From NCBI RefSeq assembly GCF_963921235.1, contig NC_086108.1, positions 68,264,001 to 68,328,000 of the forward strand: 64,000 nucleotides of DNA, in the 5' to 3' direction. The DNA comes from Mobula hypostoma (Eukaryota). Within the stretch, counting starts at the first letter, position 1. Each line of letters opens with the position of its first letter. A program made the translations under genes and the position numbers. Shown here piece after piece: positions 3,057 through 51,664 of the stretch. A model generated the notes under the pieces. The model was not told the origin of the DNA and did not search any database. It saw only the letters and a list, made by a program, of their open reading frames with translations.

Positions 3057-3371
3057 GAGGACTGCAAGTGGTCAAGTGGTTAAGGCGTTCGACTAGCGAT
3101 CTGAAGGTCGTGAGTTCAAGCCCCAGCCAAGGCAGCGTGTTGTGTCCTTGAGCAAGGCACTTAATCACACAGTGCTCTGTGACAACACTGGTGCCAAGCT
3201 ATATGGGTCCTAATGCCCTTCCCTTGGACAACATGGGTGTCATGGAGAGGGGAGACTTGCAGCATGGGCAACTGCCAGTCTTTCATACAACCTTGCCCAG
3301 GCTTGCGCCCCTGGAGAGTGAAGACTTTCCAGGCACAGATCCATGGTCTTGCAAGACTAACGGATGCCTTA
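3057..3371 (+). mobile_element. tRNA-derived SINE with CORE-like central domain
   Basis: Pol III A box TGGTCAAGTGG (3069) and B box GAGTTCAAGCC (3112), then TGTGTCCTTGAGCAAGGCACTTAA resembling the MIR/CORE motif, then ~200 bp of non-tRNA body. Confidence 0.8.
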
Positions 3372-3413
3372 AAATTAAACGGAGTACAGAAAGAGTTTGG
3401 ACAGTCCCATATA

Positions 3414-4135
3414 CAGCCTATAAAAAGTATTCAACACCCTTGGAAGTTTTATTGTTTTACAACATTGAATCACAGTGGATTTAATTTGGCTTTTTTGACA
3501 CTGATCAACTGGAAAGACTCATTCAGGTCAAAGTGAAAACAACTTACAACAAATTGGTCTAAATTTATAACAGTTATTAAACACAATATAATTGATTGCA
3601 TAATTACGCACCCTCTTCAAGCCAGTATTTAGTAGCTGCACCTTTGGCAGCAATTACAGCCTTGAGTCTGTGTGGATTGGTCTCTATCAGCTTTGCACAT
3701 CTGGACAATGCAATTTTTCCCTATTCTTCTTTACAAAACTGCTCAAGCTCTGTCAGATTGCACGGGGATTGTGAGTGAACAGCCCTTTTCAATTCCAGTC
3801 ACAAACTCTCAATTGGATTGAGGTCTGGACTCTGATTTGGCCACTCCAGGACCTTAACTTTGTTGTTTTTCAGCCATTCCTGTGTAGCTTTGGCTTTATG
3901 TTTGGGGTTTTTGTCTTGCTGAAAAACAAATCTTCTCCCAAGTCACAGTTCTCTTGCAGACTGCATCAGGTTTTCCTCCAGAATTTCCCTTTATTTTGCT
4001 GTATTCATTTTACTCTCTACCTTCACAAGCCTTCCAGGTCCTGCTGCAGTGAAGCATTCCCACAGCATGATGCAGCCACCACCAGGCTTCATTGAAGGGG
4101 TGGTGTGTTTTCGATGATTTGTGGTGTTTAGATTT
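3414..4135 (-). mobile_element. Tc1-family DNA transposon, one end with transposase C-terminal remnant
   Basis: TA|CAGCCTATAAAAAGTATTCA terminal repeat like 33201. Minus strand encodes decayed QQDKNPKH and SPDLNPIE motifs. Confidence 0.9.
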
Positions 4136-4473
4136 GTATGCAGGCATGGTTGAACATAGAAACCTTGAAGTTAATCTCTATGGTTCAGCCCTATTGCACC
4201 ATTTTTCAGTCTCTTCCATTACGATCAAGAGAAATCAGTTGGGTTGCCCAAAATCCAGTTGAATTGGCCAACTGCAAAATCTCCTGAACATCTTAAGCTT
4301 TACTAACCCATAATTAATTACTAGTGATCTCTTTAGCTTGATAAAAACTTTTAAATGGACTTGGATTATAATTTCCTCACATTAACTATTGGGAAATGCA
4401 GTAAATTTATTTTAAGTTCAGCCTTAATATATACAGTATATATTGCACTCTTAATAAGGTATAACTAAAATTA

Positions 4474-4580
4474 TCCTGTGTAGCTTTGGTTTTATGTTTG
4501 GGGTTTTTGTTTTGCTGAAAAACAAGTCTTCTCCCAAGTCACAGTTCTTTACAAAACTGTTCAAGCTCTGTCAGATTGCA
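4474..4580. repeat. Two-segment local duplication of the adjacent Tc1 copy
   Basis: 4474-4548 copies 3878-3952, and 4545-4580 copies 3727-3762. The segments join through TTCT microhomology. Confidence 0.85.
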
Positions 4581-5084
4581 TTTTACTTCCTGGTATTCCA
4601 TCTTTGAGAACTCATGAACAGGTTTACTGTGTCAACTCGATGATATACCCATTGCTGGACACCAGGAATCCTAAAAGCTGAAGCCTGTCAACAGATGACA
4701 TCAAAAAAGTTAAGTAAAAGCCTTGGGTTCAACATATCTTTGTGGTTTTTCTGAGAACAGTAGCAAACATTATTGCTTTGACGGCAATTATACAATCTAC
4801 CGTGGATGATCTTTAAGTTGCATGACCGAATAACTGTCATATCAAAAAGTTATAATATGCATAATAAAATAGATATCTAAAATCTAATTGGAGACTCACG
4901 GAAGTTATATAAGAACCAGTGAGTAGAAACCTGGAATATTACATACAGATCTGGTTTCCTACTACATGAGGGAAATGCTGTAAGAAAGGGTGTACAGGAA
5001 AGGTTCCCTATATCGCTTCCTGGCATGAGGGTTTGTCATGTGAGGAAACATTAAACAAACTTGGCCTGATTTCACTTACTGAAT

Positions 5085-5290
5085 AGCAGCCCCTGCTTCA
5101 CCCCTCCCTCTCACCACTTTATACTGGCTATCTCCCCTTTACCATCCTTAGTCACGAGAGAGGGTCTCGACCTAAAAATGTCAACTATCCCTTTGCCTTC
5201 ACAGATTCTGCTTGACCTGCTGAGTTCTTCCAGCAGCTTGCTGTTTTTCTCTAAAATATAGCATCTCCAGCCTCGTTTCTCTACTTTTTC
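5085..5290 (+). mobile_element. PLE terminal-repeat fragment with decayed hammerhead
   Basis: agtcacgagagagggtctcgacctaaaaatgtcaact...agattctgcttgacctgctgagttc resembles 46960-47090. Confidence 0.65.
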
Positions 5291-5379
5291 AGTTTAGCTG
5301 TATGGTAAGTGACATGGATAATAAAGGCCATAATTAAAATAAAACCAATCGGGGCATCCTTAAGCAGCGAATCTACTAC

Positions 5380-5537: not shown

Positions 5538-6574
5538 CTGAAAAGTGAATCGGAAAACAAATCATCAGATTTTGTTATCAATAAACACAATACCCACTCC
5601 CTATTTAAAAATATTTTATCTTACCTTCCCTTTGTTGCTAACCATTACTGAGCAGAATACTGTCATAAAAAAGCACACCAAATTAATATTACATGCTATA
5701 GTTAAGTATCAAGTTATGACAAATGACAAAAGAAAAGAATTTTTCACTACATTCTCATGGGGTCTGTCATCTATCATAGCATTGCTCTGTAATATTTGCC
5801 CAGTTTGTTGAATTTCAGTGGAAAAGACTGCAACTGACTTCTCAAGATGACTGAATATGTCCAGGCAGAGAAATCCTGGTTTTAATTTGTATCATCTCAC
5901 CACTGGTAATTGTTATGAGCTAGCTGGAAGACAGGCAACAGAACTGGCAGTAGTAAAATCACAAATGCTGTCATCCTGAGAGGGAAAAACAAATGTGTAT
6001 TCCATGGGACTACTGCACTTTCCCAGGGTGACATTTCAATGATCCTACCAATCTGACAACCCACAAGCCCCTTTGAATGTCGGTATTCATAGCCACAATG
6101 GTTGCAACATGAGATTACAAGGCAGCAGGATGAGCTTGTGTGCCTTTCCAGTGCAGCAATCAGATTTTGGGGGCTTCTGTTTGTGCTACAGTGCAAGTTG
6201 AGACATTGACCATTAGGCACGTTAGGATGGTTGGGTCTTCACATGTTGAAATAAAGCTAGCCACTACTTTAAAGATAAGCAAGAAGGGAAGAATTGGATC
6301 AGCCATGATGAAATCGTGGATTAGACATGATTGGCCAAATGGCCTAATTCTGCTCCTACATCTTATGGCTCAACACTTGATCTAAAGCCCTATGAAAAGC
6401 CCCTAGCCCTGGCACATCTGCTTTATTTCTGTCACATCTGTTAAAGGATCATTAAAAATAATCATCATGTGAAGGTAAACAACAGGAATTCTGCAGATGC
6501 TGGAAATTCAAGCAACACACATCAAAGTTGCTGGTGAATGCAGCAGGCCAGGCAGCATCTCTAGGAAGAGGTGC

Positions 6575-6610
6575 AGTCAACGTTTCAGGCCGAGACCCTT
6601 CGTCAGGACT
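6575..6610 (-). ncRNA. Minimal type I hammerhead ribozyme motif (PLE-associated)
   Basis: Minus strand AGTC-CTGACGA-AGGGTCTCGGCCT-GAAAC-GTT-GACT. Intact core, stem I AGTC/GACT, GUU triplet. Confidence 0.8.
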
Positions 6611-7474
6611 AACTGAAGGAAGAGTGAGTAAGGGATTTGAAAGTTGGAGGGGGATGGGGAGATCCAAAATGATAGGAGAAGACAGGAGGGGGAGGGATGG
6701 AGCTAAGAGCTGGACAGGTGATTAGCAAAGGGGATATGAGAGGATCATGGGACTGGAGGTCCGGGGAGAAAGACAAGGGGGGGAACCCAGAGGATGGGCA
6801 AGGGGTATATTCAGAGGGACAGAGGGAGAAAAAGGAGAGTGAGAGAAAGAATGTGTGTATAAAAATAAGTAACAGATGGGGTACGAGGGGGAGGTGGGGC
6901 ATTAGCGGAAGTTAGAGAAGTCGATGCTCATGCCATCAGGTTGGAGGCCACCCAGACAGAATATAAGGTGGTGTTCCTCCAACCTGAGTGTGGCTTCATC
7001 TTTACAGTAGAGGAGGCCGTGGATAGACATGTCAGAATGGGAATGGGATGTGAAAATGTGGCCACACATTTTAATTCCACATCCCATTCCCATTCTGACA
7101 TGTCTATCCACGGCCTCCTCTACTGGAAAGATGAAGCCACACTCAGGTTGGAGGAACAACACCTTTTATTCCGCCTGGGTAGCCTCCAACCTGATGGCAT
7201 GAACATCAACTTCTCTGGCTTCCGCTAATGCCCCAACTCCCCCTCGTACCCCATCTGTTACTTATACACACATTCTTTCTCTCACTCTCCTTTTTCTCCC
7301 TCTGTCCCTCTAATATACCCCTTGCCCATCTTCTGGGTCCCCCCCCCCCGTCTTTCTTCCCAGACCTCCTGTCCCATGATCCTCTCGTATCCCTTTTGCC
7401 TATCACCTGTCCAGCTCTTGGCTCCATCCCTCCCCCTCCAACTTTCAAATCCCTTACTCACTCTTTCTTTTGTT

Positions 7475-7510
7475 AGTCCTGACGAAGGGTCTCGGCCTGG
7501 AACGTCGACT
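7475..7510 (+). ncRNA. Minimal hammerhead motif with core mutation
   Basis: AGTC-CTGACGA-AGGGTCTCGGCCT-GGAAC-GTC-GACT. GAAA is changed to GGAA at 7500. Confidence 0.7.
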
Positions 7511-8244
7511 TCACCTCTTCCTAGAGATGCTGCCTGGCCTGCTGCGTTCACCAGCAACTTTTATCATGTGAAGGTAGATTGGATGTGAGACTGTGGATCA
7601 GGTACTCACATCTAGTCATTTTCAATGTCCTCAGCTCTATCAATGGCCACAGAATCATTCATGGCCACTCCAATTCTGGGACAAAGCACTGCAAAACATT
7701 AACATTAACCAATAGGTTGCTACCTGCATAGGTTTTACACTATTCCCCACTGCAAGAGAGGCAAATGTCTAAGTGAATTGTGTGCAATGTCTTTGGTTGA
7801 TGTCACCACTATTGCGTTCTGGGTGTGAAAGTTATAAAATGTAAATACAAGGCTTAGAATAGTGTGCAAAGTGTGTGATATATAAATGATCATGAGTTAA
7901 GTTCCAGTATTGACTGAGAGAGTTTTGTCGACAAGAGGCAAGTAACAGGATGCAACACATTAAGCAACTTGGGACTATTGGTGCATCTAGTGGAGTATGG
8001 CTATTGAAAATCTACTTGTTGACCTTGAGAATATTTGTGAGGATACTCAGTGTTACACCATTGAATCCAGACTATTAGGGTTGCATTCATGCATAGCTGT
8101 CTCTTCTCACTTTTGTTTTCCTGTGCACCTGGAGGGATGCCAAATCTACTGGATGATATTTGTACGATGTTTCAATTTAACATATTGAAAGTAGGGAAAT
8201 TCATCCTCAGCCATGGTGCTCCTATACTTCTCCCCATAACCTTT

Positions 8245-33171: not shown

Positions 33172-33444
33172 CTAAAGTAATATTAACAAAAATGGGGATA
33201 CAGTGCCTATAAAAAGTATTCACTGCCCCCCCCAGAAATTTTCATGTTTTATAACATTGAATCGCAGTGGATTTAATTTGGCTTTTTTGACACTGAACAA
33301 CAGAAAAGATTCTTTCGTGTCAAAGTGAAAAAAATTTCTACAAATTGGCCTAAAGTTATTACCATTATTAAACAGAAAATAATTGATTGCATTATTACTC
33401 ACTCCCTTCAAGTCGATATTTAGTAGATACAGCTTTGGCAGCAA

Positions 33445-34385
33445 TTACAACTCGAGTCTGTGTGGATAGGTCTCTATCAGCTTTGCACATCTGGACACTG
33501 ATTCTCCCCATTTTTCTTTACAAAACTGCTGAAGTTCTGTCAGATTGCATGGAGATCGTGAGTGAACAGCCCTTTTCAAGTCCAGCCACAAATTCTCAAT
33601 TGGTTTGAGGTCTGGACTTTGACTTGGCCACTCCAGGACCTTAACTTTGTTGTTTTTAAGCCATTCCTGTGTAGCTTTGGTTTTATGTTTGGGATCATTG
33701 TCTTGCTGGCAAACAAATCTCCCTTGTTGCAGTTCTCTTGCAGACTGCATCAGGTTTTCCTCCAGGATTTCCCAGTATTTTGCTGCACTCATTTTACCCT
33801 CCAGCTTCACAAACCTTCCAAGGCCTTCTGCAGTGAAGCATCCCCACAGCATGACGCAGCCACCACCATGCTTCACGGTAGGGATGGTATGTTTTTAATG
33901 ATCTGCGGTGTTTGGCATTTGCCAAACATAGCATTTAGTCAGATAGCCAAAAAGCTCAAACAATAGAACCTTCTTCCATCTGACTTCAGTCTCCCACATG
34001 CCTTCTGGCAAAAGCTAGCCGAGATTTTATGTGAGTTTTTTTTTCCCCCCCAAAAGTGTCTGTCTCTTTGCCACTCTCCCATGAAGATGTGACTGGTGAA
34101 GCACCCAGGCAACAGTTTTTGCATGTGCAGTCTCTCCCATCTCAGCCACTGAAACTTGTAATTCTGCCAGAGTTGTCATAGGTCTCTTGGTAGCCTCTCT
34201 CACTAGTCCCCTTCTTGCACGGTCACTCAGTTTTTGAGGACTGCCTGCTCTAGGCAGATTTACAGTTGTGTCATATTCTTTCCATTTCTTGATGATTGAC
34301 TTAACTGTACTCCAAGGGATATTCAGTGACTTGTATTTTTCAATAACCTTTTCTTGCAGTTGCTTGTAATGTTCTTTTGTCTTAT
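33445..34385 (-). pseudogene. Tc1 transposase, disrupted
   Basis: KHGGGCVMLWGCF, QQDNDPKH, WPSQSPDLKPIENLW. N-terminal part is frameshifted and the start appears mutated to ATA. Confidence 0.9.
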
Positions 34386-34551
34386 GGTATAGTTTTTGCC
34401 AGGATACTGACTCACCAGCATTTGGATCTTCTTCTTCTTCTTCTTCTATTTCCAGCTGTTTAGACGCATCTAGGCGTATTACAGCCCTCTGCAGGATGTA
34501 TAATTAATTATAGAACTTCAAGGAACTCAAATTCTTGAATACAACCTAGTC

Positions 34552-37500
34552 TCAGGTATAAACTGAATAATAAGACTCTTCAATAAGATGTTGATTCTCT
34601 TGATGGCCAAACAAAGATTTAATAGAAAACCAAAATAAATTTAAGCTGGATAGCCTCTTGAACAACATGCTTCTTTCAATTTTGTATCGATTACAGCAAA
34701 ACATGCTGGACTGTGTCTGGACTACCACAGTCACATAATCCAGTAGGATGTTTTCCTATTATCTTTAAATAATAATTTAGCCCACAATGCCCCAACCCAA
34801 GTCTTGTAAATTTCACCATATCTCTACGACTTAAAAGGTAACAGTCTGAGACCTTTTTAAACTAGTGGGTGACTAGAAAAATAATGCCTGCCCCTTAATT
34901 CATTTTTCTAATCCTCCTGCCACTTCTTCTCTATACCTTTTTTAAATCCTACTTTTCAATTCTGCTCTGCCTAGGGAAACTCTAATTTCTACTTGCCTGC
35001 TCTGTAAGGAAGACTTAGCAGTGCCATCCACAATTTCATTTCCTTCCACCCCAGTATGCCCAGGTATCCATGAAAATCTAACTGCACAACCCATCTTCCC
35101 TACTCTAAACAACACTAAGAGAATCTCAATAACTATGTCAGGACAAGCTTTTGATTTACTCCCTTTTACAAACTCTAAGGCAGCAGTAGAATCTGAACAG
35201 ATGATAACCGTACGTGGTCGAGAGTCTTCTACCCACCATAAGGCCCAGACGATTGCTAATAATTGTTGCAAAGACAGAAACACCCGGTGGCCAATGTTAG
35301 CTCCAAGTTGAGACACATACATCCCAAATCCTGCCCTACTGCTCTCTGGGTCCACTGAGCCATCAGTAAAAATCTTCAGATAAGATCCCCATTTATTATT
35401 TAAATATTCATTTGTGATCAACGCTGATGAAATTGCACTACTTCCTTGAAGCTGAAAAAGGAGGAATAGGTCTACTTCTGGTTCTGGAAAGAGCCAAAAA
35501 GGGACGGGTGGCAAGCAAATTTGGTCAACTATGTCTTCCTCAGTCAGTTTCAATTTCACAGCCTAGTTATTAACAAATCTAAAAGTGGGTATCTTTTAAT
35601 TTTACTTTGGCCTCTGACTTCCCCTGCAAAAGACACTTTGATGGACAGCTGTGATTGAATCCATTTAGTTTTACCCAATACTGCAGGCCCAACTGAATTT
35701 ATCTTAAATGTAGAGGCACTTCTCCCATCTCCACACAATGTTGTTCTAAAAGCTCCACAGAGTAAGTGCTTTGGACTGCACAGTGTCTAGTTTTCCAAGC
35801 ACTGCCATAGCAGCGGAATCATAAGCAATACAACCATAATCTATAACTGATCTAATCATAGCTAGATATATTAAGTACATAGTTTCCCACCCTGCTCCCC
35901 AGTCACATCCAGCAATACTTCTCATAACATTTAAAACTTTCTCACACTTTCCAATTGTTTTATCTATATGAACCCTCCAAGTAAGTCTTTCATCAAACCA
36001 GACACATTAAAAACTTGAATACCTTGACTCTTTCTAGTGGAGAATGATATAGACACAATTCACAATCAGGAATCTTCCTTCTAAAGCCAAAAATCATGTA
36101 CAATGATTTGCCAAATCCTGTCCCTACCTGATCAAAGATATCATTTATCATGACATTAAAAAGAACTGGACTAATGATACTTCCTTGAGGGGTACCATTA
36201 CCTATTTTAACTGACTTGGAGTTTGTTCCGCCTATTCTTACTTGAATTGTCCTTTCCTTAAGGAAATCTTTGATCCAATTAAACATTCTATCTCTAATTC
36301 CCGCATCATAGAGTTTAATTAATAAGCCATCTTTCCATAGTGAGTCATATGCGCTTTCAATATCTAGAAATACACTTACCATTACTTCTCTATTTTGAAA
36401 TGCTTTTTTAATATCATGATCTAAAAGGGCAACAGATTCCATTGTTGATCTTCCAGTTCTAAAACCATTTTGATGGGCAGCAAAATGTCCCTTATTCTCC
36501 AAAAACTAAACAAGTCTGTTGGTGACCATTCATTCCATAGTTTTACAAAGCACTGACGTTAAAGCTATAGGCCGATATGAACTAGGACTGGACGCGTCCT
36601 TACCTGGCTTTAAAACTGGAACTACCACCACATGCTTCCATTCCACTGGTAATTTTCCTTCTTTCCATACTGAATTAAACAATGCTAGAATTTCTATTAA
36701 TACAGAGTCATCTAAATGCTTAAGCAATTCATAACACAGTCCATCCCTACCAGAAGTGTTTGAACCTGATTGGACAGCTTCCTGCAATTCCTGAAGGGAG
36801 AAAAAAAAATTTATGGAGCTATTATCATCCAAACTCCTGTCCAATTTCCAACTTCCCTTTAACACAATTTCCTTTCTCAAATCACCCAACTCTCCAGAGC
36901 TGTGTAACGCTTGGAACACCTCTACAAACATATCAGCCTTTTCCTTATTGGTTACAGCTTCAATATCTCCTTCCAGCAAAACTGGGGTAGATGGTTTCCT
37001 AAATATCCCTGACATTCTGTGAATAATCATCCATAGCTGCTTTATAGGTGTCTCAGTGCCCAGGGCTCCACAAAATCTTCTCCAACTATCCCTCTTTACA
37101 TTTTTAATTACTCTCCTTGCTACTGCTCTTTCCTTTTTATACTCCATAACATTATCTAACACTGGGGTACTTTCTTAATTTCCTGTAAGCTCTATTTCTG
37201 TTTCTTACTGCTATATCACAACTTTTATTCCACCACGGAACTAATGCTCGAGCCTTAGGTACATTCAATAGCAGAATAGTCAGCTGAGCAACTTTATGAA
37301 TTATAGAACAGAGGGATTCATTCCAATCATCTATGGAGCCCTTGCTATTAATCTCTTCTATTATATCCACAGCTTTCTCCTGGTACTCATCTCAATAGGC
37401 CAAAGAAAAATTATACCCAGCAGACCTCTCCTCAACTTCTACTATCAAATTTCTACCAAATCTACATAATATAGGATAGTGATCACTTCCTAGTGTGTAA

Positions 37501-38102
37501 CTGTCCATAACATCCCATTCCCCAACCCTAGCTAAGTTTGAGGAAGTCATAGATAAGTCTAAGTGACTACAAGTATTCTTTACAATATTAAATCTTGTCG
37601 GCCTTCCGTCATTTAGCAGTACCATGTTGTATTTATCTAGAAACTCCTCTATTACCACTCCATTATTATCTTTACTTTCACTACCCCATATAGGATTACG
37701 GGCATTGAAATCTCCAACCCAGATTACTGGGGATCTTACCTTATTCATAATTTCAACCAAATCTGATAACATCATATTACCTGCATTATAAAAGTTAATC
37801 AAGGTTATTTGACCACAAGAGCTCCAAACCTCCACAGCCACAATTTCAAGGTTAGATTTAAAATCAAGTCTTCTAAACTGGAGTCCTCCTTTTATGAAAG
37901 TTGCACACTCTCCACCAGATTTACCTGTTCTGTCAGCTCTCAAACTATCATATCCAGGGATCACAAAATCTAAATGAGGCTTTAACCATGTCTCCTGCAT
38001 ACAGATCAAATCAGGCTTGTCTTTAAAAGTTCCAACAAATCTTTTTAATTCTTGACCATTTGCAGATAAACTTCTTGCATTCCATTGTAATATTAAAAAC
38101 AT
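34552..38102 (-). pseudogene. LINE B ORF2 (APE, reverse transcriptase, RNase H)
   Basis: Consecutive ORF-track fragments 37392-38135, 37152-37370, 36530-37162, 35993-36502 and 34942-35559 fall in domain order. Confidence 0.92.
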
Positions 38103-39386
38103 CCAAATACCAATTATCGGCCTCTTCATCCACATAAAGCACTTCTGAACTCTCTGATCCCAACAACTGGGAAGTATTCAGTGATTGTTTGTCTGTCATA
38201 TACTCATGTAATTTTTCCAGTGAAATCTGTTTTATGTCAAGGAATCTCTCTGCAGCTCCAACAACTACTTTTATCATATCCGACCTCTTGACTGTAGTTT
38301 TATCCCCGACCAGTACATCAACAACAAACGCCAAAAAACTCTTTAGTCATCAACAACATGCCTGAAGGAACCATAGTTGGAGAACTCAGAATGTGCTGAC
38401 TCCCCATCCTTCCCATCTTTTCTTTACTTATCCTTTGCTCTTTATCAACTTTCTTTACTGCCTCAGCATATGATATTTTTTGTTGGATACTAACATCCTG
38501 AATCTGCTTTGCCTTACTAAAATACTCACATCCTCGGAATGCCACTCTATGGTCCCCTCCACAGTTACTGCATTTAGGCACCGCTGCCTTACATGCTTTA
38601 TTATCATGATCCTCTCCACATTTCATACATCTTCTTTTACCTCGAACATGAACCAGCAACATGTCCAAATCTCTGGCAATCATAACAGCGTAAGGGAGGC
38701 CTAATGTATTCTCTAACTTGATAAGACATGCACCCAAGATAGACTCTAGTTGGAAGAACATCACCTGCAAAAACCAGAAGAACAGGGGAATCCCAATTAC
38801 CACTTTCTCTCGATTTTAATCGTTTAACTTCAATCACTCAACCTTTAATAGTGTCCAAAATTTCCTTTTCAGTTATGCCAGGCCAAATACCATACACTAC
38901 CCCCTTAACTCCCTTCCTTTCTTTCAGCATAATACTCTCCACTTTCACAACCAATTTTCCCACCATTTTAGCACTGTTATATTGGTCAATATCTTTGCAA
39001 GAAATTTTCAGCAATCCATTAGACAAAATCTTGGCCTGGAATCCTTTACCTATTTGATTCTCTAATGCTGCTGCCACTTTCAAAGGAAAAAGGGTTCTAA
39101 ATCCTCCTTCTCCTTCCTTCTGACCTTTAATTTTATACAGAACTATAAATTCCTCCAATTCACCCATTTTCCTCAATTTGTTGTCCCCCATTACTTCAGA
39201 TCTTTCACTTGATGCACCCCTTTTTTTGGCTACCCTTACTTCTGGAGTATTCCACAGTCTCCCGTCCTCCCCCTTCAATCTCAACCCCACCTCTCCCCTT
39301 TGCAGCCATAGGCTACAAACTAACCCTTTCCAAACTCCTTGGTTCCTCCATACCAAAGTCTCCACCCACTCAATCAACAGCCCCAA
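38023..39386 (-). pseudogene. LINE B ORF1, gag-like nucleic-acid-binding protein
   Basis: PLRCYDCQRFGHVAGSC, RCMKCGEDH...C, KCSNCGGDH...C, then SYAEAVK. Split by a stop and frameshifts. Confidence 0.9.
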
Positions 39387-39426
39387 CTGCCAGTCTCAGC
39401 TCAGCCCAGCCCCAGCATTTGGGTCT

Positions 39427-41409
39427 GTCTGTCTGTATCTTGTTTTACAGCAGTTGGCATCCAGCTTAATGGTGCATTACCGCCACCCTCTGCTCCAGAA
39501 TGTGCACTAGACATACATTCTAAATCCCTTCACCCAATCTCACACACACACCTACACTTCACCCTCCCATCTTTGACCATCCTAGTATCCTATTCCTGTT
39601 TATTCGTCATATTCTATAAAAAACCCCTGTACCCCTTAAAAACACTAAAAATACCTGGACTTGTGCTCTCCCACCCATGCCCAGCAACCCTTTTAATGTG
39701 AATTCCTGCATCTCCAACTCGCTTAATTTATTTCTCATCATCTCTCTCTGTATCCCATACTTCCTGCAACACAAAACTACATGTTCTACTGACTCCTCTT
39801 CCTGACATTCCTCACACAATCCTGTCTGGTGTTTCCCTATCATTTTCAATGTTTTGTTTAATGCACAATGCCCCAGCCTTAACCTAGTCCACACAATTTC
39901 CTCTCTTCTGTTTCCATTACCTACCCTAGTAACTGCAACACTCTTTTGTATTTGATATAAATGCCTCCCTTTCCCCTCCCTGGCCCATCTTTCTTGCCAC
40001 ATTTGGTTGACTTTTTCCCAGATTACACACTTAACCTCTGCTTTACTGACACTAATGTGCATTTCCACATTTTCTTTCTTTAACGCCCTCTTTGCCAACT
40101 CATCCACCCTCTCATTCCCCTTCACCCCTACATGTGCTGGAACCCATAGAAATTTTACCTGACCTCCCTGATTTGCAATTCTTGTAACTAACTGAAGGAC
40201 TTCATAAAGTACATCTTGCTGACTGTTTGTGTGAAAAGACCTTAAACTTGCTAGAACTGAGGATGAATCTGAACATATCAATGCTTTGGCTTGTCTGGCT
40301 TTCTGCACCCATTGCAATGCAACCAACACTGCCAGCATCTCCACTGTAAACACCCCTAACTTATTAGATGTTCTTCTGCTGATTCCAATTTCTTTTGCTG
40401 GTATTACCACCCCAAACCCTGTCACTCCTGTTTCAGGTTCCTTCGCACCATCTGTATAAATGTGAGTATAATCACTATACTTTTCCATCACATGACAGTT
40501 AAATGCATTTACCAAATCTGTTTTATATCTTTGTTTCCTTTTTACCTCTAACAAATGCCAGTCTATGTCAGGCCATACAAGCTTCCATGGAGCTACAACT
40601 GGATAAACTACTGAAGGACTTATCCTCAGATCAAATACTCCACATTCTTTCGCGATATCATTTCCTACCCGACTAAAGGTATCCCTCTGAAACCTCCCAT
40701 TTTCCTAGCACTCCTGCAACACTCCTTTAGTAGGGTGAGAATCATTGTGCCCCTGCAAGTTAGCCCAGTAGTTTGCCATCAGTTGCATCCTTCTTTGTTC
40801 CAAAGGCATTATTCCCATTTCTACCTGTAGGGCTGACACTGATGACGTTTTAAAAGCCCCACTGCACACTCTCAAGGCCTGAGCCTGAATCACATCCAGT
40901 TTCCTTATAAGAGACCTAGCTGCTGATCCATATACTATATTTCCATAATCCAATACAGATCTTACTAAAGCCACATACATTCTCTTCAAAGCTGAACAAC
41001 TTGCTCCCCATTCCCTACCAGTCAAACATCTCATCACATTTATTACTTTTTTACATTTCTCCTCAACTTTCCTGATATGGTCTACCCATGTTAATCGTGA
41101 ATCAAATATAACTCCCAGAAATTTAAATGATGCAACCCTTTCTAAGTCAACCCCATACATCCTTAACTTCTTCCCTACCTCAACCCTTTTCCTGGTAAAA
41201 AATACAGTTTGAGTTTTGTCTACTGAAAATCTACATCCCCAATCATAACCCCACTCCACCACTTCATCAATTGCTTCTTGTAGTTTCCTAATTACATGGT
41301 CCATGTTCCTGCCTCTTTTCCACAAGGCCCCATCATCCACAAAGAGTGACCTACCTATATCCACTGGTACCTTTGTGAAGACATCATTGATCATAATAAT
41401 GAAAAGTAA
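39427..41409 (-). mobile_element. 5'-truncated I/Nimb-like LINE 'A' (RT C-half, RNase H, zinc motif), a different and younger family
   Basis: SLFVDDGALW, KFLGV, YTDGAK...SDS...WVPAHVGVKGNERVD, RLRLGH...CEEC...H....C. One in-frame stop (40705) in ~600 codons. 3' UTR GGTGGCGGTAATGCACC, (CAGA)n tail, perfect 14-bp TSD. Confidence 0.93.
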
Positions 41410-42274
41410 CAGCATTTGGGTCTTCCAGCTACAGGTGTATTTTTACTACAATCAATTGAAACACCTTGACTGCACATAGGTGATCTCCATTTAACTAATT
41501 ATGTGACTTCTAAAACCAGTGATGATTTGGTGTGTCATATGAAAGGGGGTAAATAATTAAGCAATCAATTATTTTGTGTTTTATATTTGTAATTAATTTA
41601 GATCACTTGGTAAAATTTTTTTCTCATTTTGACATGGAAGAGTCTTTTCTGTTGATCAGTGTCAAAAAAGCCAAATTAAATCCACTGTGATTCAATGTTG
41701 TGAATCAATAAAACAGGAAAACTTCCAAGGAGGAGGGGTTAAATACTAAGAGCATTGCATATTACTTCACTGCTATATGCATATTTCCTTGCATTTATAA
41801 TGTTTTCCAGTAGATGAGGAACTTGCATTAAATTAATTAATATTTTTCATGTTTCTTTACAGAATGTCAGCAAAGTCACATTTCTTGCACATAAATTATA
41901 TCTATAAATGTTTATCAGTAAATATATACAGTGCAGTGATGTACATATTTTTGAGTCTCCAGGTCGGACAGGCAATGAATTACTTACCTACATGAAACTT
42001 TATACACTCATTAACTACAATTCATTTCACATTCAGAAAGTAAAATGTTTTACTGTGGAGTAAGTAGGCAGCTACATAAATCTAAAAGAACTGAGCATGT
42101 TCCCACATTTATAAGAGTAAAAACAAAACTTCAGCTGTTGTAAATATAACACAAAAACTGAAAATGAAATAAAAATTTAACACTTCTGTGGAAGAGTAAC
42201 TGAGTTAATATTGCTGAGTAATTTTTTGCTAGAACCGGGAAATGTTTAAAAATGCATAGTTTTATCTTCCAGTT

Positions 42275-46159: not shown

Positions 46160-46666
46160 CCTCCCCCCCCCGCATTCCGCAGGGATCGCTCCCTACGCAA
46201 CTCCCTTGTCCATTCGTCCCCCCCATCCCTCCCCACTGATCTCCCTCCTGGCACTTATCCGTGTAAGCGGAACAAGTGCTACACATGCCCTTACACTTCC
46301 TCCCTTACCACCATTCAGGGCACCAAACAGTCCTTCCAGGTGAGGCAACACTTCACCTGTGAGTCAACTGGGGTGATATACTGCGTCCGGTGCTCCCGAT
46401 GTGGCCTTTTATATATTGGCGAGACCCAACGCAAACTGGGAGACCGCTTTGCTGAACATCTACGCTCTGTCCGCCAGAGAAAGCAGGATCTCCCAGTGGC
46501 CACACGTTTTAATTCCACATCCCATTCCCATTCTGACATGTCTATCCACGGCCTCCTCTACCGTAAAGATGAAGCCACACTCAGGTTGGAGGAACAACAC
46601 CTTATATTCCGTCTGGGTAGCCTCCAACCTGATGGCATGAACATCGACTTCTCTAACTTCCGCTAG
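46160..46666 (+). CDS. PLE linker and GIY-YIG endonuclease domain (partial, open)
   Basis: AFRRDRSLRNSLV, CKRNKCYTC, VIYCVRCSRCGLLYIGET...RFAEH...LEEQHLI...GMN. The RT part is absent. Confidence 0.9.
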   Translation, partial: PPPPAFRRDRSLRNSLVHSSPPSLPTDLPPGTYPCKRNKCYTCPYTSSLTTIQGTKQSFQVRQHFTCESTGVIYCVRCSRCGLLYIGETQRKLGDRFAEHLRSVRQRKQDLPVATRFNSTSHSHSDMSIHGLLYRKDEATLRLEEQHLIFRLGSLQPDGMNIDFSNFR

Positions 46667-46959
46667 GCCCCACCTCCCCCTCGTACCCCATCTGTTACTT
46701 ATTTATATGCACACATTCTTTCTCTCACTCTCCTTTTTCTCCCTCTGTCCCTCTGAATATACCTCTTGCCCATCCTCTGGGTCCCCCCCCCCTTGTCTTT
46801 CTTCCTGGACCTCCTGTCCCATGATCCTTTCATATCCCCTTTTGCCTATCACCTGTCCAGCTCTTGGCTCTATCCCTCCCGCTCCTGTCTTCTCCTATCA
46901 TTTTGGATCTCCCCCTCCCCCTCCAACTTTCAAATCCCTTACTCACTCTTCCTTCAGTT

Positions 46960-46995
46960 AGTCCTGACGAAGGGTCTCGGCCTGAAACGTCGACT
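46960..46995 (+). ncRNA. Minimal type I hammerhead ribozyme motif, fully canonical
   Basis: AGTC-CTGACGA-AGGGTCTCGGCCT-GAAAC-GTC-GACT. Palindromic ACGT in place of stem III; predicted cleavage after C46991. Confidence 0.85.
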
Positions 46996-48429
46996 GCACC
47001 TCTTCCTACAGATGCTGCCTGGCCTGCTGCGTTCACCAGCAATTTTGATGTGTGTTGCTTGAATTTCCAGTATCTGCAGAATTCCTGTTGTTTACATTGG
47101 GCTTTGTTAAAATGGTATAGGAATTCGAAGAAAGATGGATAGAAGGGGTATGGCGCATGAAAGCACCAGGCAGCTGAAAGTTCAGTTAATCCTGTGGAAT
47201 GAACTGAACTGTTCTGGAAAGCAGTCCTCAGTTTGCATTTGGTTTCACCAATGAAAGGCGATTACATCATCAGCAACAGATACAATATACTAAATAAGAA
47301 AGAGTGTAAATGAATTGCTGCTCTGATTATGAAGAGGATCTATGATGGGAGTTGGTAAAAGAGCAAGTGTTGCACCTCCTGCAATTGAATGGGAAGTGTC
47401 CTGAGAAGGAGGGAAGATACAGTTGAAGATGGAAATGTGAACCAAGGAGGCATAGAGAGGAAGATCCCTCTAGAATGCTTGAAGGAGTGGAGTAGCTGCA
47501 TCTCAGAGTGGCATTTTACTGAAGGTGACAGAAAGATCTTTTTGAAGGTTGTGAAGACCGTTGGGGTATGAAATGAAAAACCCATCTTACCCTGGACGGG
47601 AGAAAAGTGAAGTGAAAGCAGAAGTACAGGAAGTGAAACACACATATACATAACACAATGAAATGAGTCACTGACTGAATACCCAAATAAGACTGAGAAT
47701 TACAAAGATAAAAATTTCTCTCTCTTTCTCTTTTTAAGTAGTCAGTTCATTTTGTAGACTCTCCTCCAGCCTAGGAACCAATATCACGTCAACTACAGTA
47801 TCTGTCAGGCTATTTCATTGTCATGATTTGAATTTGATGACTTCTTAATCTCTAAATTCCAAAGAATAAGCTACTTCATTTCTCTTTATGTTATAGTTTT
47901 CTGATCAGAAAAATACTCCACAAGGTAACATTCTTCAAACTGTATCCCATATCAGGACTTTCAAAAACCCCATTGAATTGCAGTTGGACTTTATTCACAT
48001 GCTCCAACACTCTTAAAATTTAAAGGAGCTTCATTAGCACTTGCTATATCTGCATGCTAAATTCAGTGATTTGCATACATGAACACCCAAATCCCTATTA
48101 TCATCATAATTTATATTTGCAGAATAAGGACTGGTGCAGCCTCAAAAGCTATTTGTTAATTTTCTGAAATGATTGTCTTCTAAGATAATTTAATCAAGTA
48201 ATAACAAAGTACTTTAGAGAAGGGAGAGGGGTCTGCAATCTTGAGAATAAATTAGAAATCCATTTGCTGAGAAATGGCAAAACCGCAAGATTTAAAGCTG
48301 CAACTTGTGATCAACCCACAGGCTTGGAATCATCCAATCAACGTGTATGGAAGTAAAATAGTCTCACAGTGCAACCTAGGTTGAAATTGCAAGTAGAGAT
48401 GCAAAATAATGCACTGCAATTAGTGAAAG

Positions 48430-48830: not shown

Positions 48831-49149
48831 AACACTCTGTGGCTACTTTAGTAGGTTCACCTGTGGAACTGCTCGTTAATGCAGATATCTAATCAGCCAA
48901 TTGTGTGGCAGCAACTCAATGCATAAAAGCATGCAGTTGTGATCAAGGGGTTCAATAATTGTTTAGACCAAACAACAGAATAGGGAAAGAAATGTGATCT
49001 AAATTACTTTGACCATGAAAAGATCGTTGGTGGAAGATGGGGTTGTTTGAGTATCTCAGAAGCTTTTGACCTCCTGGGATTTTTACACACAACAGTCTCT
49101 AGAGTTTACAGAGAATGGTGAGCAAAAAAAACATCCAAAGACTGGCAGT
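48831..49149 (+). mobile_element. 5' part of a second Tc1 family
   Basis: CACTCTGTGGCTACTTTAGTAGG terminus and decayed HTH (..IVGGRWGCLSISEAFDLLGFLHTTVSRVYREW). Confidence 0.75.
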
Positions 49150-51587
49150 AAAAGACTCTTCTGTGTCAAAGTGAAAAAAGATCTATACAAAATGAACTAA
49201 ATTAATTAATTATAAATATAAAATACAAAATAATGGATAAGTATTCACCCCCTTTAATATGACACATCAAACCATGACTCGTGCAGCCAATCGGTTTTAG
49301 AAGTCACATAATTAGTTAAATGGAGATCACCTGTGTGCAGTCAAGGTGTTTCAATTGATTGTAGTAAAACTACACCCGCATCTGGGAGGTCCAACTGCTA
49401 GTGAGTCAGTATTCTGGCAAAATCTACAACAGGAGACAAATGAATGCTCCAAGTAACACTCAAAAAAAATTATTGAAAAGCACAAGTCAGGAAATGGATA
49501 CAAGAAAATTTCCAAGTCACTAAATATCCCTTGGAGCACAGTTAAGTCAATTATCAAGAAATGGAAAGAATATGGCATAGCTGTAAATCTGCCTAGAGCA
49601 GGCCATCCTCGAAAACTGTGTGACTGTACAAGAAGGGGACTCGAGAGGGAGGCCACTAAGGCTATGTCTACACTAGACCAGATAATTTTGAAAACGCCAG
49701 TTTTGAGTAAAACGACAGGTGTCCACACTAGACGGTTTTCAAAATATCTCTGTCCACCTTAAAATGGCTATTTTGGCGAATCTACTCCTACTGGGCATGT
49801 GCAGACACATCTACAGAAAACAAGCGAAGAGGAAACGGTATACTACTTACATTTCCACGGCAGCGTTGTGCTATTTCCATTGGTCAAAAACTAGAGTACC
49901 AACAACAGCGAAAAAAAAGTTTTCAACAATGTCTTTGAGGAATACAAAGAAAACCTCCGCTGGAAAAAGCAGACCAGACTTCTTCATTTAGACAGGCAAT
50001 GAAGTTGAGCTGTTTCTGCGAGTTACAAACGACTACAAAGTCAGCAGAGCAGTGGAAAACGTGGAGATGTTTAACTCCAAACAAGCTATTAACATAGACA
50101 ATAAAGTAAACAACACACGCATGAAGCCGTCCTCTACCCAAGATCAACAAGAGAGTGGAATCTTCCGCCGCCAGACCTGCACAATATTTCTGACATTAAT
50201 ATTTTTAAAGATAGACTCAATCAAATCAATTTAGGGGATCTAGTCAAAAAAGCTGACTTTACAATTTAACTCTCACGCCGTTCACACTGACTGCACGTTA
50301 TAACAGCCATCCGGCAGTGCTTGCACAGTACCAAGCAGAAGCAGAAAAAGAATTGTTGTTGTGGTGTTGTCATGACAGCATTTTTAAATATCTCTGTTTA
50401 CCCCTTCCACACTACAATGCGCAACAATCGTTTTCGAATTTACACACTGGAGAGTGTTTTAGAAAAGCTCCATTTTTGGGGGATGAAAATGCCGTTTCAA
50501 TGTGGACGGAGGGTCAAAACGAAGAGAAAAAGCTTCATTTTCAAAATTATCCAGCATAGTGTGGACATAGCCTAAGAGACCTATGACAACTCTGGTAGAG
50601 TTACAAGCTTCAATGGCTGAGATGGGAGAGACTCCACATACAACAACTGTCGTTTGGGTGCTTTACTATTTGCATCTTTATAGAAAAGTGACAAAGAGAA
50701 AGCCACTGATGGGGAAAAAAAAACTCTCATGAAATCTCAACTAGAATTTGCTAGAAAGCATATGGGAAACTCTGAAGTCAGCTGGAAGAAGGTTCTATGG
50801 TCTGATGAAACCCAAATTCACCCTTTTGGCCATCATACTAAACACTGTTTGGCATAAACCAAACATTGCACATCATCAAAAACACACCATCCCTACCGTG
50901 AAGCATGGTGACAGCTGCATCATGCTGTGGGGATGCTTCACTGCAGAAGGCCCTAGAAGGCTTGTGAATGTAGAGGGTAAAATGAATGCAGCAAAATACA
51001 GAGAAATCTTGGATGACAATCTGATACAGTCTGCAAGAGAACTGCAAATTGGGAGAAGATTTGTTTTCCAGCAAGACAATGATCCCAAGTATAAAGCCAA
51101 AGCTATATAGGAGTGGCTTACAATCAACAAAGTTAATGTCCTGGAGTGACCATGTCAGAGTCCAGGCCTCAATCCAATTGAGAATTTGTGGCTTGACTTG
51201 AAAAGGAGTATTCACTCACAATCCCCATGCAATCTGTCAGAGCTTGAGCGGTTTTGTAAAGAAGAATGGGGAAAATTTGCAGTGTTCAGATGTGCAAAGC
51301 TGATTGAGATCTACCCACACAGGCTCAAGGCTGTATTTGCTGCCAAAGGTGTACTTCAAAGGGGTGACTAATGGTGCGACTAATAGTGCAATAAATTATT
51401 TTGTGTTTAATAATTGTAATGAACTTAGACCAATATGTAGAAATGTGTTTTCACTTTGACATGAAAGAATCTATTCTATTGTTCGGTATCAAAAAAGCCA
51501 AATTAAATCCACTGTGACTTCAATGTTGTAAAACAATAGCACATGAAAACTTCCGAGGGGGGAGGTGAATACTTTTTATAGGCACTC
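49150..51587 (+). mobile_element. Tc1 (DD34E) copy of the 33201 family, left end truncated, interrupted by a Harbinger MITE
   Basis: WSDET (50798), FQQDNDPK, NPIENLW motifs. Right end GTGAATACTTTTTATAGGCACTC|TA. Confidence 0.93.
49660..50572 (+). mobile_element. PIF/Harbinger non-autonomous element (913 bp) with TAA TSD
   Basis: TAA|GGCTATGTCTACACTA...GATAATTTTGAAAA and TTTTCAAAATTATC...TAGTGTGGACATAGCC|TAA. The corresponding empty site is seen in the Tc1 copy at ~34181-34210. Confidence 0.92.
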
Positions 51588-51664
51588 TAAGAATATAAGA
51601 AATAGAATTAGTGTAGGCCATATGGCCTCTTATTCCTGCTCCAGCATTCAATTGGATCATCTAC

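Follow-up and report, generated by a model that had tools for sequence, protein, structure and literature searches.

Two LINE families stacked in a Tc1 leader of Mobula hypostoma and their shared insertion about 21 bases behind TATA-like words

The window, meaning the whole 64,000-nucleotide stretch of Mobula hypostoma DNA that was analysed, contains a Tc1-like transposon whose leader has received two different LINEs at one nucleotide. This raises the question of whether the elements seek the transposon itself, as an earlier note proposed by comparison with Xenopus Tx1 elements, or a feature that the leader has in common with other targets. Comparison of the insertion sites favours a common feature: both families insert about 21 bases behind TATA-like words, in one orientation, in roughly half of their copies.

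Read 5' to 3' on the minus strand, the stack comprises the Tc1 leader, a target copy, LINE A, a second target copy, LINE B, and a third target copy (Table 1). The host transposase is on the same strand and matches the Pfam families HTH_Tnp_Tc3_2 and DDE_3. Its start codon at 34383-34385 is mutated to ATA and lies 30 bases beyond the end of the duplication, and the right terminal repeat ends at the TA at 33199-33200. The outline given in the earlier note holds in these respects: the three target copies are found at 34416-34431, 39413-39426, and 41410-41425, both LINEs are co-oriented with the transposase just upstream of its start, and B is decayed while A has one stop and identical flanking copies.

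Table 1. Features of the stack and of the second Tc1 copy in the window.
Feature	Position	Strand	Remark
Host Tc1-like transposon, 3' part	33201..34415	-	transposase remains and right terminal repeat
Downstream target copy AGATCCAAATGCTG	34416..34429	-	ancestral T retained
LINE B, full-length	34430..39412 (34432-39412 with tail/target ambiguity)	-	
Middle target copy AGACCCAAATGCTG	39413..39426	-	serves B as 5' duplication and A as 3' duplication
LINE A	39427..41409	-	5'-truncated inside RT
Upstream target copy AGACCCAAATGCTG	41410..41423 (41410-41425 in the earlier note)	-	same sequence as middle copy
Tc1 5' leader and left terminal repeat	41424..41733	-	outer end not found
TATA-like word TAAAAA	41440..41445	-	22 bases upstream of duplication start; proposed positioning signal
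Empty homologous site AGGTCCAACTGCTA in second Tc1 copy (49150-51589)	49387..49400	+	

LINE B consists of a short 5' tag, an ORF1 with CCHC knuckles, an ORF2 with APE, RT, and RNase H in pieces, a 3' UTR, and a (GAA)n tail. The window copy has many breaks, lacks about 120 bases within ORF2, and is 93-94% identical to another full-length copy. LINE A comprises the end of RT, RNase H, the single stop at 40705-40707, a 3' UTR, and a (CAGA)n tail. It corresponds to 3300-5294 of a full-length copy, with 97.2% identity.

At the LINE 5' junctions, the claim that both elements entered at one nucleotide holds exactly. The 3' junctions have a margin of about 2 bases, since tail and target agree there (AG, GAAG), and positions 34430-34431 are compatible with both the target and the LINE B tail. 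A T-to-C change is present in the upstream and middle target copies only, which places the insertion of B first and that of A second. The two elements also differ in age, in agreement with the earlier view of two events at different times. Three runs, all of a single sample from which the assembly may derive, contain a 74-base contig that bridges the junction of the B 5' end, target, and A tail with zero mismatches, at single-copy depth. Data of a second organism gave no coverage of this junction, a result that carries no weight either way. No contig across the entire stack was found among those of four runs, and these contigs provided no start sites either.

The second Tc1 copy, described earlier as uninterrupted, is in fact interrupted at 49660-50572 by an inverted-repeat element of 913 bases flanked by TAA. 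A homologous empty site is present in it, as claimed, but differs from the target given at the time at 5 of 16 bases and was missed by a search allowing 3 mismatches.

Judged by their coding content, A and B represent two distant families of the I group with APE, RT, and RNase H. ORF2 of both matches Pfam PF14529/PF03372, PF00078, and PF00075 (APE, RT, and a C-terminal RNase H), and RNase H is among the features given for I-group non-LTR retrotransposons (PMC4640811, partial text). ORF1 of A has a zf-CCHC match, the same motifs are readable across frameshifts in B, and the two ORF1 sequences are 41% identical. The I-group traits of 5' truncation, target-site duplication, and simple-repeat tails, (CAGA)n or (GAA)n, are present. 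Duplications of 9-19 bases, with a mode of 13, occur in 100 of 180 loci. Relatives are found in teleosts, a mollusc-associated assembly, and spiders, and those of medaka, carp, and wrasse have an intact ORF2. In a tree of unnamed or generically named homologues, A is nested among teleost elements and B forms a deeper branch. The metagenome loci examined for duplications (36/80 screened) gave zero clean usable sites.

The common signal of the insertion sites is ATWWAAR on the LINE's own strand, which begins 19-23 bases before the duplication and thus lies outside the duplicated target. In the discovery set, TATAAA with at most 1 mismatch begins 32-37 bases before the duplication end in 43/97 sites (37/97 with repeated targets collapsed), against a background of 3.5% and 2 cases on the other strand. 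The held-out set has it in the same interval in 22/39 sites, with a background of 4.3% and none on the other strand. Altogether, 65 of 136 clean sites contain the word, on the sense strand only, and 71 lack it in the tested interval. An unsupervised motif search over 97 distinct targets recovers ATWWAAR in about 62% of them, with a peak 21-22 bases before the duplication; AATAAA and TTTAAA are also seen at this position. CR1 controls, which are older copies anchored without duplications, have the word in 1 of 16 sites (P=0.001). The preference is common to both families. The duplicated sequence itself has no consensus other than a purine at its start, where it agrees with the tail, (CAGA)n or (GAA)n. 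A loose YGCY-RG motif noticed by eye at the duplication end disappeared once repeated targets were collapsed.

It is on balance probable that RNA polymerase II machinery on a core promoter sets the place of insertion, 19-23 bases past the TATA-like word and facing away from it. Transcription starts about 30 bases after the TATA box begins and melting begins 20-30 bases downstream (PMC4291466, partial text), with the upstream bubble edge determined by TATA (PMC5055313, partial text). The integration complex would be positioned by the assembled machinery, and the first nick would fall on the template strand where melting begins, at about TATA+21. The RNA tail would then pair with 2-4 exposed bases and prime reverse transcription, and the second nick would lie just beyond the expected start site, at about TATA+34. 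After insertion, the TATA would stand at the correct distance only for the upstream target copy, so that a later element would land upstream of an earlier one, as with B and then A. Transcription of a full-length copy would be driven by the captured promoter; this would account for 5' tags that are inherited and variable. Over 14-20 bases, the tag matches the Tc1 site in 3 copies and the LTR-like site in 5.

A broader reading is put forward as somewhat less likely than not: a vertebrate LINE clade would home on polymerase II pre-initiation complexes, nick at the point of melting, insert in sense at the start site, disable the owner (Tc1, CR1, LTR, or Penelope-like), and take its promoter. Its copies would form a fossil map, accurate to a few bases, of germ-line-active TATA promoters, and teleost relatives would have the same preference.

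Some reused sites belong to 5' leaders, ahead of the ORF starts, in three families of Tc1 and two of CR1; the others are in LTR-like or Penelope-like repeats. The CR1 ORF1, second Tc1, LTR/primer-binding-site, and Penelope labels are presumptive and follow typical features of such elements, and Pfam named 1 of 6 short ORFs downstream of the targets (L297, HTH_SB). No host gene promoter was identified among the targets, and the identified hosts are transposon leaders.

Several observations are counted against promoter anchoring. An initiator (YR) peak at TATA+30 was looked for at the sites and not found, the word is absent from the 71 sites mentioned above, and two sites (L250 and L333) follow AATAAA in an outward-facing Tc1 terminal repeat. 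The stack's own Tc1 leader now has its CCAAT stretch deleted and its upstream CACCTG mutated. Occupied and empty Tc1 leaders show no clear difference in intact TAAAA (28/29 vs 25/31, P=0.06) or in CCAAT (21/29 vs 19/31, P=0.26). The 5' tags reach as far as 4 bases upstream of the duplication, a point that a transcript from TATA+30 would miss by about 10-14 bases. The Tc1 copies may have been silent, since they are old (14-15% apart) and their word is the imperfect TAAAAA.

The main rival, rather unlikely, holds that recognition lies with ORF2p itself, through an AT-rich word some two helical turns upstream of the nick and through local DNA shape; TATA boxes would happen to fit that word, and open chromatin would add to the effect. 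Spacing and orientation fit it equally well, the presence of AATAAA and TTTAAA at the signal position and the missing initiator signal agree with it, and the trypanosome elements L1Tc/NARTc of the Ingi clade have a conserved upstream pattern (PMC5814959, partial text). It does not account easily for the choice among words within the same Tc1, where one of 25 conserved TATA-like words receives 12 of 18 insertions, while a perfect, well-conserved TATAAA in the terminal repeat is unused (0 A tails at 5,441 copies of the 12-mer after it). Insertions at the Tc1 site are about 650 times more frequent than at an average TATA-like word. Usage is also unequal among Tc1 subtypes, which are distinct from one another about 50 bases upstream of the nick: 27/29 occupied and 15/29 empty leaders are of the short subtype, and CACCTG about 50 bases upstream is kept in 16/29 occupied versus 2/29 empty ones, both comparisons being post hoc with the first 29 copies of one contig as the empty set. 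The enrichment of CCAAT/ATTGG upstream of the sites (14/37, versus 10/74 downstream windows; P=0.004) likewise speaks against it.

The Tc1 position is a strong hot spot. Counted as tails within 30 bases of a Tc1 13-mer with 3,326 occurrences, and with the window copy included, 20 of the 1,315 tails of family A and 8 of the 207 tails of family B are at the site, compared with uniform expectations of 0.02 and 0.003, respectively, or an enrichment of about 1,000-fold. A-like tails there number 59, with at least 6 3'-end variants judged by eye; the leader of the second Tc1 family gave 1 exact match for A tails, a count without a denominator. The copies at the Tc1 site are independent insertions, as their truncation points differ among the 20 A junctions and the duplications carry the private changes of each Tc1 copy on both sides. 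A preference common to both families and a strong concentration at this position, both proposed earlier, are upheld.

It is very unlikely that insertion is random and that copies at transposon promoters were merely kept. Only fixed or assembled copies were studied, and the knockout of a transposon promoter could be neutral or favourable, but the 1,000-fold excess, the precision of 3-5 bases, and the strict orientation would need a near-total loss of other insertions from a 3.5-Gb repeat-rich genome. Other Tc1 positions would be no less harmless yet are rarely used, and CR1 lacks such a signal.

Slighter still is the chance that the families target Tc1 in the manner of Xenopus Tx1, with an endonuclease that recognises the Tc1 sequence around the nick. 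The enrichment at a single Tc1 nucleotide and the many 3'-end types there would suit this, and some master copies probably sat at the Tc1 site. However, only 12 of 244 sampled copies are at that site and 232 are elsewhere, which contradicts an exclusive preference and indicates that A and B are not Tc1-targeting elements; the others reuse sites in unrelated repeats. The LTR-like cluster is larger than the Tc1 cluster (15/136 vs 8/136), and the duplications have no common consensus. Tx1L and Tx2L are transposon-targeting elements, and the Tx1 type has an L1-group ORF2 without RNase H; A and B differ from it in RNase H and in ORF1 type. The Tc1 leader is best read as one abundant site of the proposed promoter kind, with at least 3,326 copies, and not as a dedicated host. 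The double insertion in the window is likely one among several reused hot spots.

Least probable of all is an amplified composite Tc1::LINE unit, or a stack made by a single template switch or an assembly error, which the Tc1 flank common to several full-length A copies and the want of a read or contig across the whole stack would allow, against the differing truncations, the copy-specific duplications, the unequal ages of A and B, the target change between the two events, and the single-copy depth at the A/B junction.

The proposed anchoring resembles that of the dictyostelid elements TRE5-A, TRE3, and NLTR-A/B, which are APE-type non-LTR elements at a fixed promoter distance; ORF1 of TRE5-A binds TBP, Brf1, and Bdp1, and NLTR-A/B have RNase H (PMC5911963, partial text). 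These are L1-clade elements of compact genomes at polymerase III (tRNA) genes, with TRE5 in the opposite orientation 44-54 bp upstream (same source), whereas A and B belong to the I group and are found behind polymerase II-type TATA-like words, in the same orientation, in a large vertebrate genome, with a putative tether. Ty3 of budding yeast likewise integrates at a start site set by a TBP-containing complex (PMC5911963, partial text; see also PMC6673722). In contrast to A and B, for which we infer such positioning, Ty3 is an LTR element with an integrase, is directed to polymerase III genes, and had its positioning shown in vitro. At the 65 sites with the word, insertion keeps one distance from the putative core promoter element and one orientation to it, as is the case for Ty3 and TRE5-A; polymerase III genes are not the targets, as an Rfam search of 20 loci with TATA-positive sites gave zero RNA-gene matches.

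Simple-repeat tails are present in Nimb/I-clade LINEs of fish, and the ingi/RIME elements of trypanosomes presumably have an upstream pattern comparable to that of L1Tc/NARTc. The fish LINEs also have the domain order and RNase H of A and B (PMC9004415, partial text). L1Tc/NARTc, which belong to the I group too and likewise encode APE, RT, and RNase H, show a conserved pattern upstream of their insertion sites; this pattern runs to the nick and is not described as a TATA box or promoter (PMC5814959), while A and B have one AT-rich word 19-23 bases away and no nick consensus. Target-specific LINEs of the Tx1 and R1 clades, some of which target transposons, have APE, multicopy targets, and tandem stacking in common with A and B (PMC4640811, partial text). 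They recognise one target sequence, whereas about 5% of A and B copies are at the Tc1 site, many unrelated repeats are used, and RNase H is present. A literature search, with most subscription journals, Repbase reports, and supplements outside its scope, found no such target preference for Nimb/I-clade LINEs and no report of this targeting.

If promoter anchoring is true, it would explain LINE stacks in transposon leaders, make these LINEs parasites of the promoters of other elements, and provide a natural RT-endonuclease with promoter-directed insertion. Even if ORF2p reads the motif, the constant spacing of 21 bases gives a precise rule, open to experiment, for the ORF2p of a little-studied clade. 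The intact-ORF2 relatives in medaka, carp, and wrasse make the claim testable in species with start-site maps. For polymerase III genes of yeast and amoebae, integration at a given position beside a basal transcription complex is well documented (PMC5911963, partial text), and APE LINEs with specific targets are known chiefly from the Tx1 and R1 clades (PMC4640811, partial text). A third mode of LINE targeting would be represented by a vertebrate LINE of the I group that aims at polymerase II promoters of the TATA type.

Insertion of the LINE families A and B in this genome follows a TATA-anchored, oriented rule. The discovery set comprises 180 loci in genome order (90 A and 90 B), of which 100 have a clean target duplication of 9–19 bases (mode 13); removal of three stacked cases leaves 97 sites. 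In these, TATAAA with at most one mismatch is sharply peaked on the LINE's strand, 33–35 bases before the duplication end and 19–23 bases before its start. With the test window fixed at 32–37 bases before the duplication end, the word is present at 43/97 discovery sites compared to 3.5% in shifted windows. In the held-out set, for some loci of which 40 bases of 5′ flank had been inspected beforehand, it is present at 22/39 sites compared to 4.3% in shifted windows, and never on the other strand. These 39 remain from 98 loci after the loss of one that had no anchor, 26 whose 5′ end lay outside, 25 lacking a clean duplication, five duplicates, and two stacks. The word occurs in both A (38/81) and B (27/55), and in 37/97 when repeated targets are counted once. 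An unsupervised search recovers the motif ATWWAAR, present in about 62% of the distinct targets; this motif matches TATAWAWR, as given in a section of PMC4291466, minus its first base. The CR1 control, with 16 usable loci of 30 taken, has the word at 1/16 5′ junctions (P = 0.001). The duplications start with AG, AA, GA, or CA, compatible with the LINE tails.

A and B are distant families by sequence, with identities of 53% in RT, 44% in APE, 41% in ORF1, and 32% in the RNase H region. In a tree of homologues with generic names or none, A is nested among teleost elements and B branches deeper. LINE A ORF2 (L227:1125-4394, minus strand) has short branches among the teleost elements, its best matches being 63–76% identical, which may reflect transfer between fish lineages. 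In a distant relative on a metagenome contig, a second copy of the element's 3′ end directly precedes the 5′ end, and would represent a tandem array or an assembly circle.

Parts of the LINE stack in the Tc1 leader, in minus-strand order
Feature	Coordinates	Strand	Remark
Tc1 left repeat and leader	41733-41424	minus	outermost upstream part of stack
LINE A	41409-39427	minus	target copy on either side
LINE B	39412-34430	minus	target copy on either side
Remainder of Tc1	34415-33201	minus	downstream of last target copy

Pfam identifies the host transposase as Tc1-type, the LINE ORF2s as APE-RT-RNase H, and ORF1 as CCHC. The window LINE A is cut inside RT and has 97.2% identity to a full-length copy, and LINE B is full-length with 93–94% identity to another. 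The window's TATA-like word is TAAAAA (41440–41445), 22 bases ahead of the duplication. Nearly all of 60 Tc1 leaders compared have T as base 4 of the site. Because C is found only in the upstream and middle copies in the window, and the downstream copy still has T, the sequence indicates that B inserted first, that the upstream copy then mutated, and that A duplicated the mutated copy. The ages agree with this order, as Tc1 copies are 14–15% apart, B copies a median 92.7% alike, and A copies 95.5%. The A/B junction is bridged by a 74-base contig with no mismatches in three runs of one sample; none of the sequencing contigs checked spans the whole stack.

The second Tc1 copy in the window, described in the earlier note as uninterrupted and carrying the same target, differs at 5/16 site bases. 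Its transposase is interrupted by 913 bases (49660–50572) that have inverted ends, are flanked by TAA, and presumably represent a PIF/Harbinger-like MITE. Directly ahead of this Tc1 copy (48840–49150) is a leader piece of a second Tc1 family, whose leader is a LINE hot spot at L142, L288, and L291. Further fragments of the host Tc1 family, including a 75-base near-duplicate, lie at 3411–4136 and 4474–4581. A young repeat in inverted orientation (6521–7564 and 46496–47098, 84–94% alike) has a GIY-YIG-like reading frame and is probably Penelope-like.

By exact patterns across the 3.48 Gb genome, 20 among 1,315 A tails and 8 among 207 B tails, window included, adjoin the Tc1 13-mer. Uniform insertion predicts 0.02 and 0.003, and the enrichment of both families at this position is supported. 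The 13-mer has 3,326 copies, 29/30 of those sampled being host Tc1. The insertions measure between about 30 bases and full length, and their duplications have each Tc1 copy's private changes on both sides, which indicates independent events. A looser pattern gives 59 A-like tails here, among which six or more 3′-end types can be told apart by eye. Since about 2% of sites are occupied, we estimate that one or two double insertions would be expected genome-wide.

Among 244 distinct copies (127 A and 117 B) picked regardless of flank, 18 end inside host Tc1 and 12 at the site itself. As unrelated repeats are also reused, the earlier reading is half right: two events and a hot spot for A and B stand, and Tc1-specific targeting does not. 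The 136 clean sites include reused-site clusters of 15, 5, 5, 4, 3, 3, 2, and 2. Judged from the flanks, the reused targets are presumably an LTR-like repeat (sites about 150–180 bases past its TG start), further LTR-like repeats, one with a primer-binding-like site following, the leaders of the second Tc1 family and of a CR1 (5′ leader), and a Penelope-like repeat that has CCAAT, GC, and TATA boxes. One singleton site lies ahead of the transposase start of a third Tc1 (Pfam HTH_SB), and another ahead of what we take to be another CR1 ORF1. Four targets (L013, L187, L190, and L185) are CpG-rich, contain TATA-like words, and appear to be low-copy; they may be host gene promoters.

Besides the window, 13/257 loci have one LINE tail directly ahead of another LINE body, and one of these stacks is three deep. 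At L351 (G000:C1:153504365-153511483), one target holds a stack of three LINE tails that belong to two or three families. The target stretch is common to both tails at L238, L259, L274, L337, and L351, and present at both with mismatches at L270, L294, and L316. An A or related tail is upstream of B in six stacks, B precedes an A-like piece of greater divergence in one, and six are same-family. This order fits an upstream signal, because the upstream target copy alone would retain it and a later element would land upstream. Full-length copies have 2–110 additional 5′ bases. Five of these tags have in common 14 bases that match the LTR-like hot spot, and three resemble the Tc1 site over 18–20 bases, so that source copies were probably located in those promoters. 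The tags extend beyond the upstream limit that a start at TATA+30 would set, and repeated template jumps may contribute.

Placement of the insertion by promoter tethering is the best explanation, and one we moderately favor. The duplicated stretch, TATA+21 to +34, would coincide with melting onset and transcription starts, and a section of PMC6446368 describes promoter activity and TATA-like words at Tc1/mariner 5′ ends. The main rival, in which ORF2p reads the motif directly, is considered rather unlikely. Arguments against tethering are the lack of an initiator peak at target sites, the absence of a clear difference in TATA and CCAAT integrity between occupied and empty Tc1 leaders, a window leader that today has neither CCAAT nor CACCTG, the absence of the word from 71/136 sites, and an outward AATAAA in a terminal repeat preceding two sites. 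In favor of tethering, CCAAT/ATTGG is found upstream in 14/37 targets compared to 10/74 downstream windows, and a single one of 25 conserved TATA-like words in host Tc1 receives 12/18 insertions, the site being used about 650 times more than the average word. No A tail occurs at 5,441 copies of a 12-mer downstream of TATAAA in terminal repeats; roughly half of these copies have the spacing under test, and P remains 1e-5. Occupancy also differs post hoc with the short leader subtype (27/29 occupied, 15/29 empty leaders) and with a CACCTG kept about 50 bases upstream (16/29 and 2/29), which argues for tethering. Leaders of the host Tc1 family (L149–L178) fall into two or more subtypes, which differ by an 11-base insert and the CACCTG word, and are of similar age with different LINE occupancy.

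The literature searched, including parts of PMC9341512 and PMC9004415, does not describe TATA-anchored insertion for LINEs of this kind. Tx1-type specificity, as outlined in an extract of PMC4640811, is rejected for A and B, with 12/244 copies at the Tc1 site. The upstream pattern of L1Tc is a precedent for direct motif reading (PMC5814959, in part). The working of TRE5-A and Ty3, which a section of PMC5911963 describes as placed at polymerase III genes by TBP-containing TFIIIB, is most alike to A and B, whose tether is hypothetical. Unlike TRE5-A and Ty3, A and B belong to a different clade and have polymerase II-type targets.
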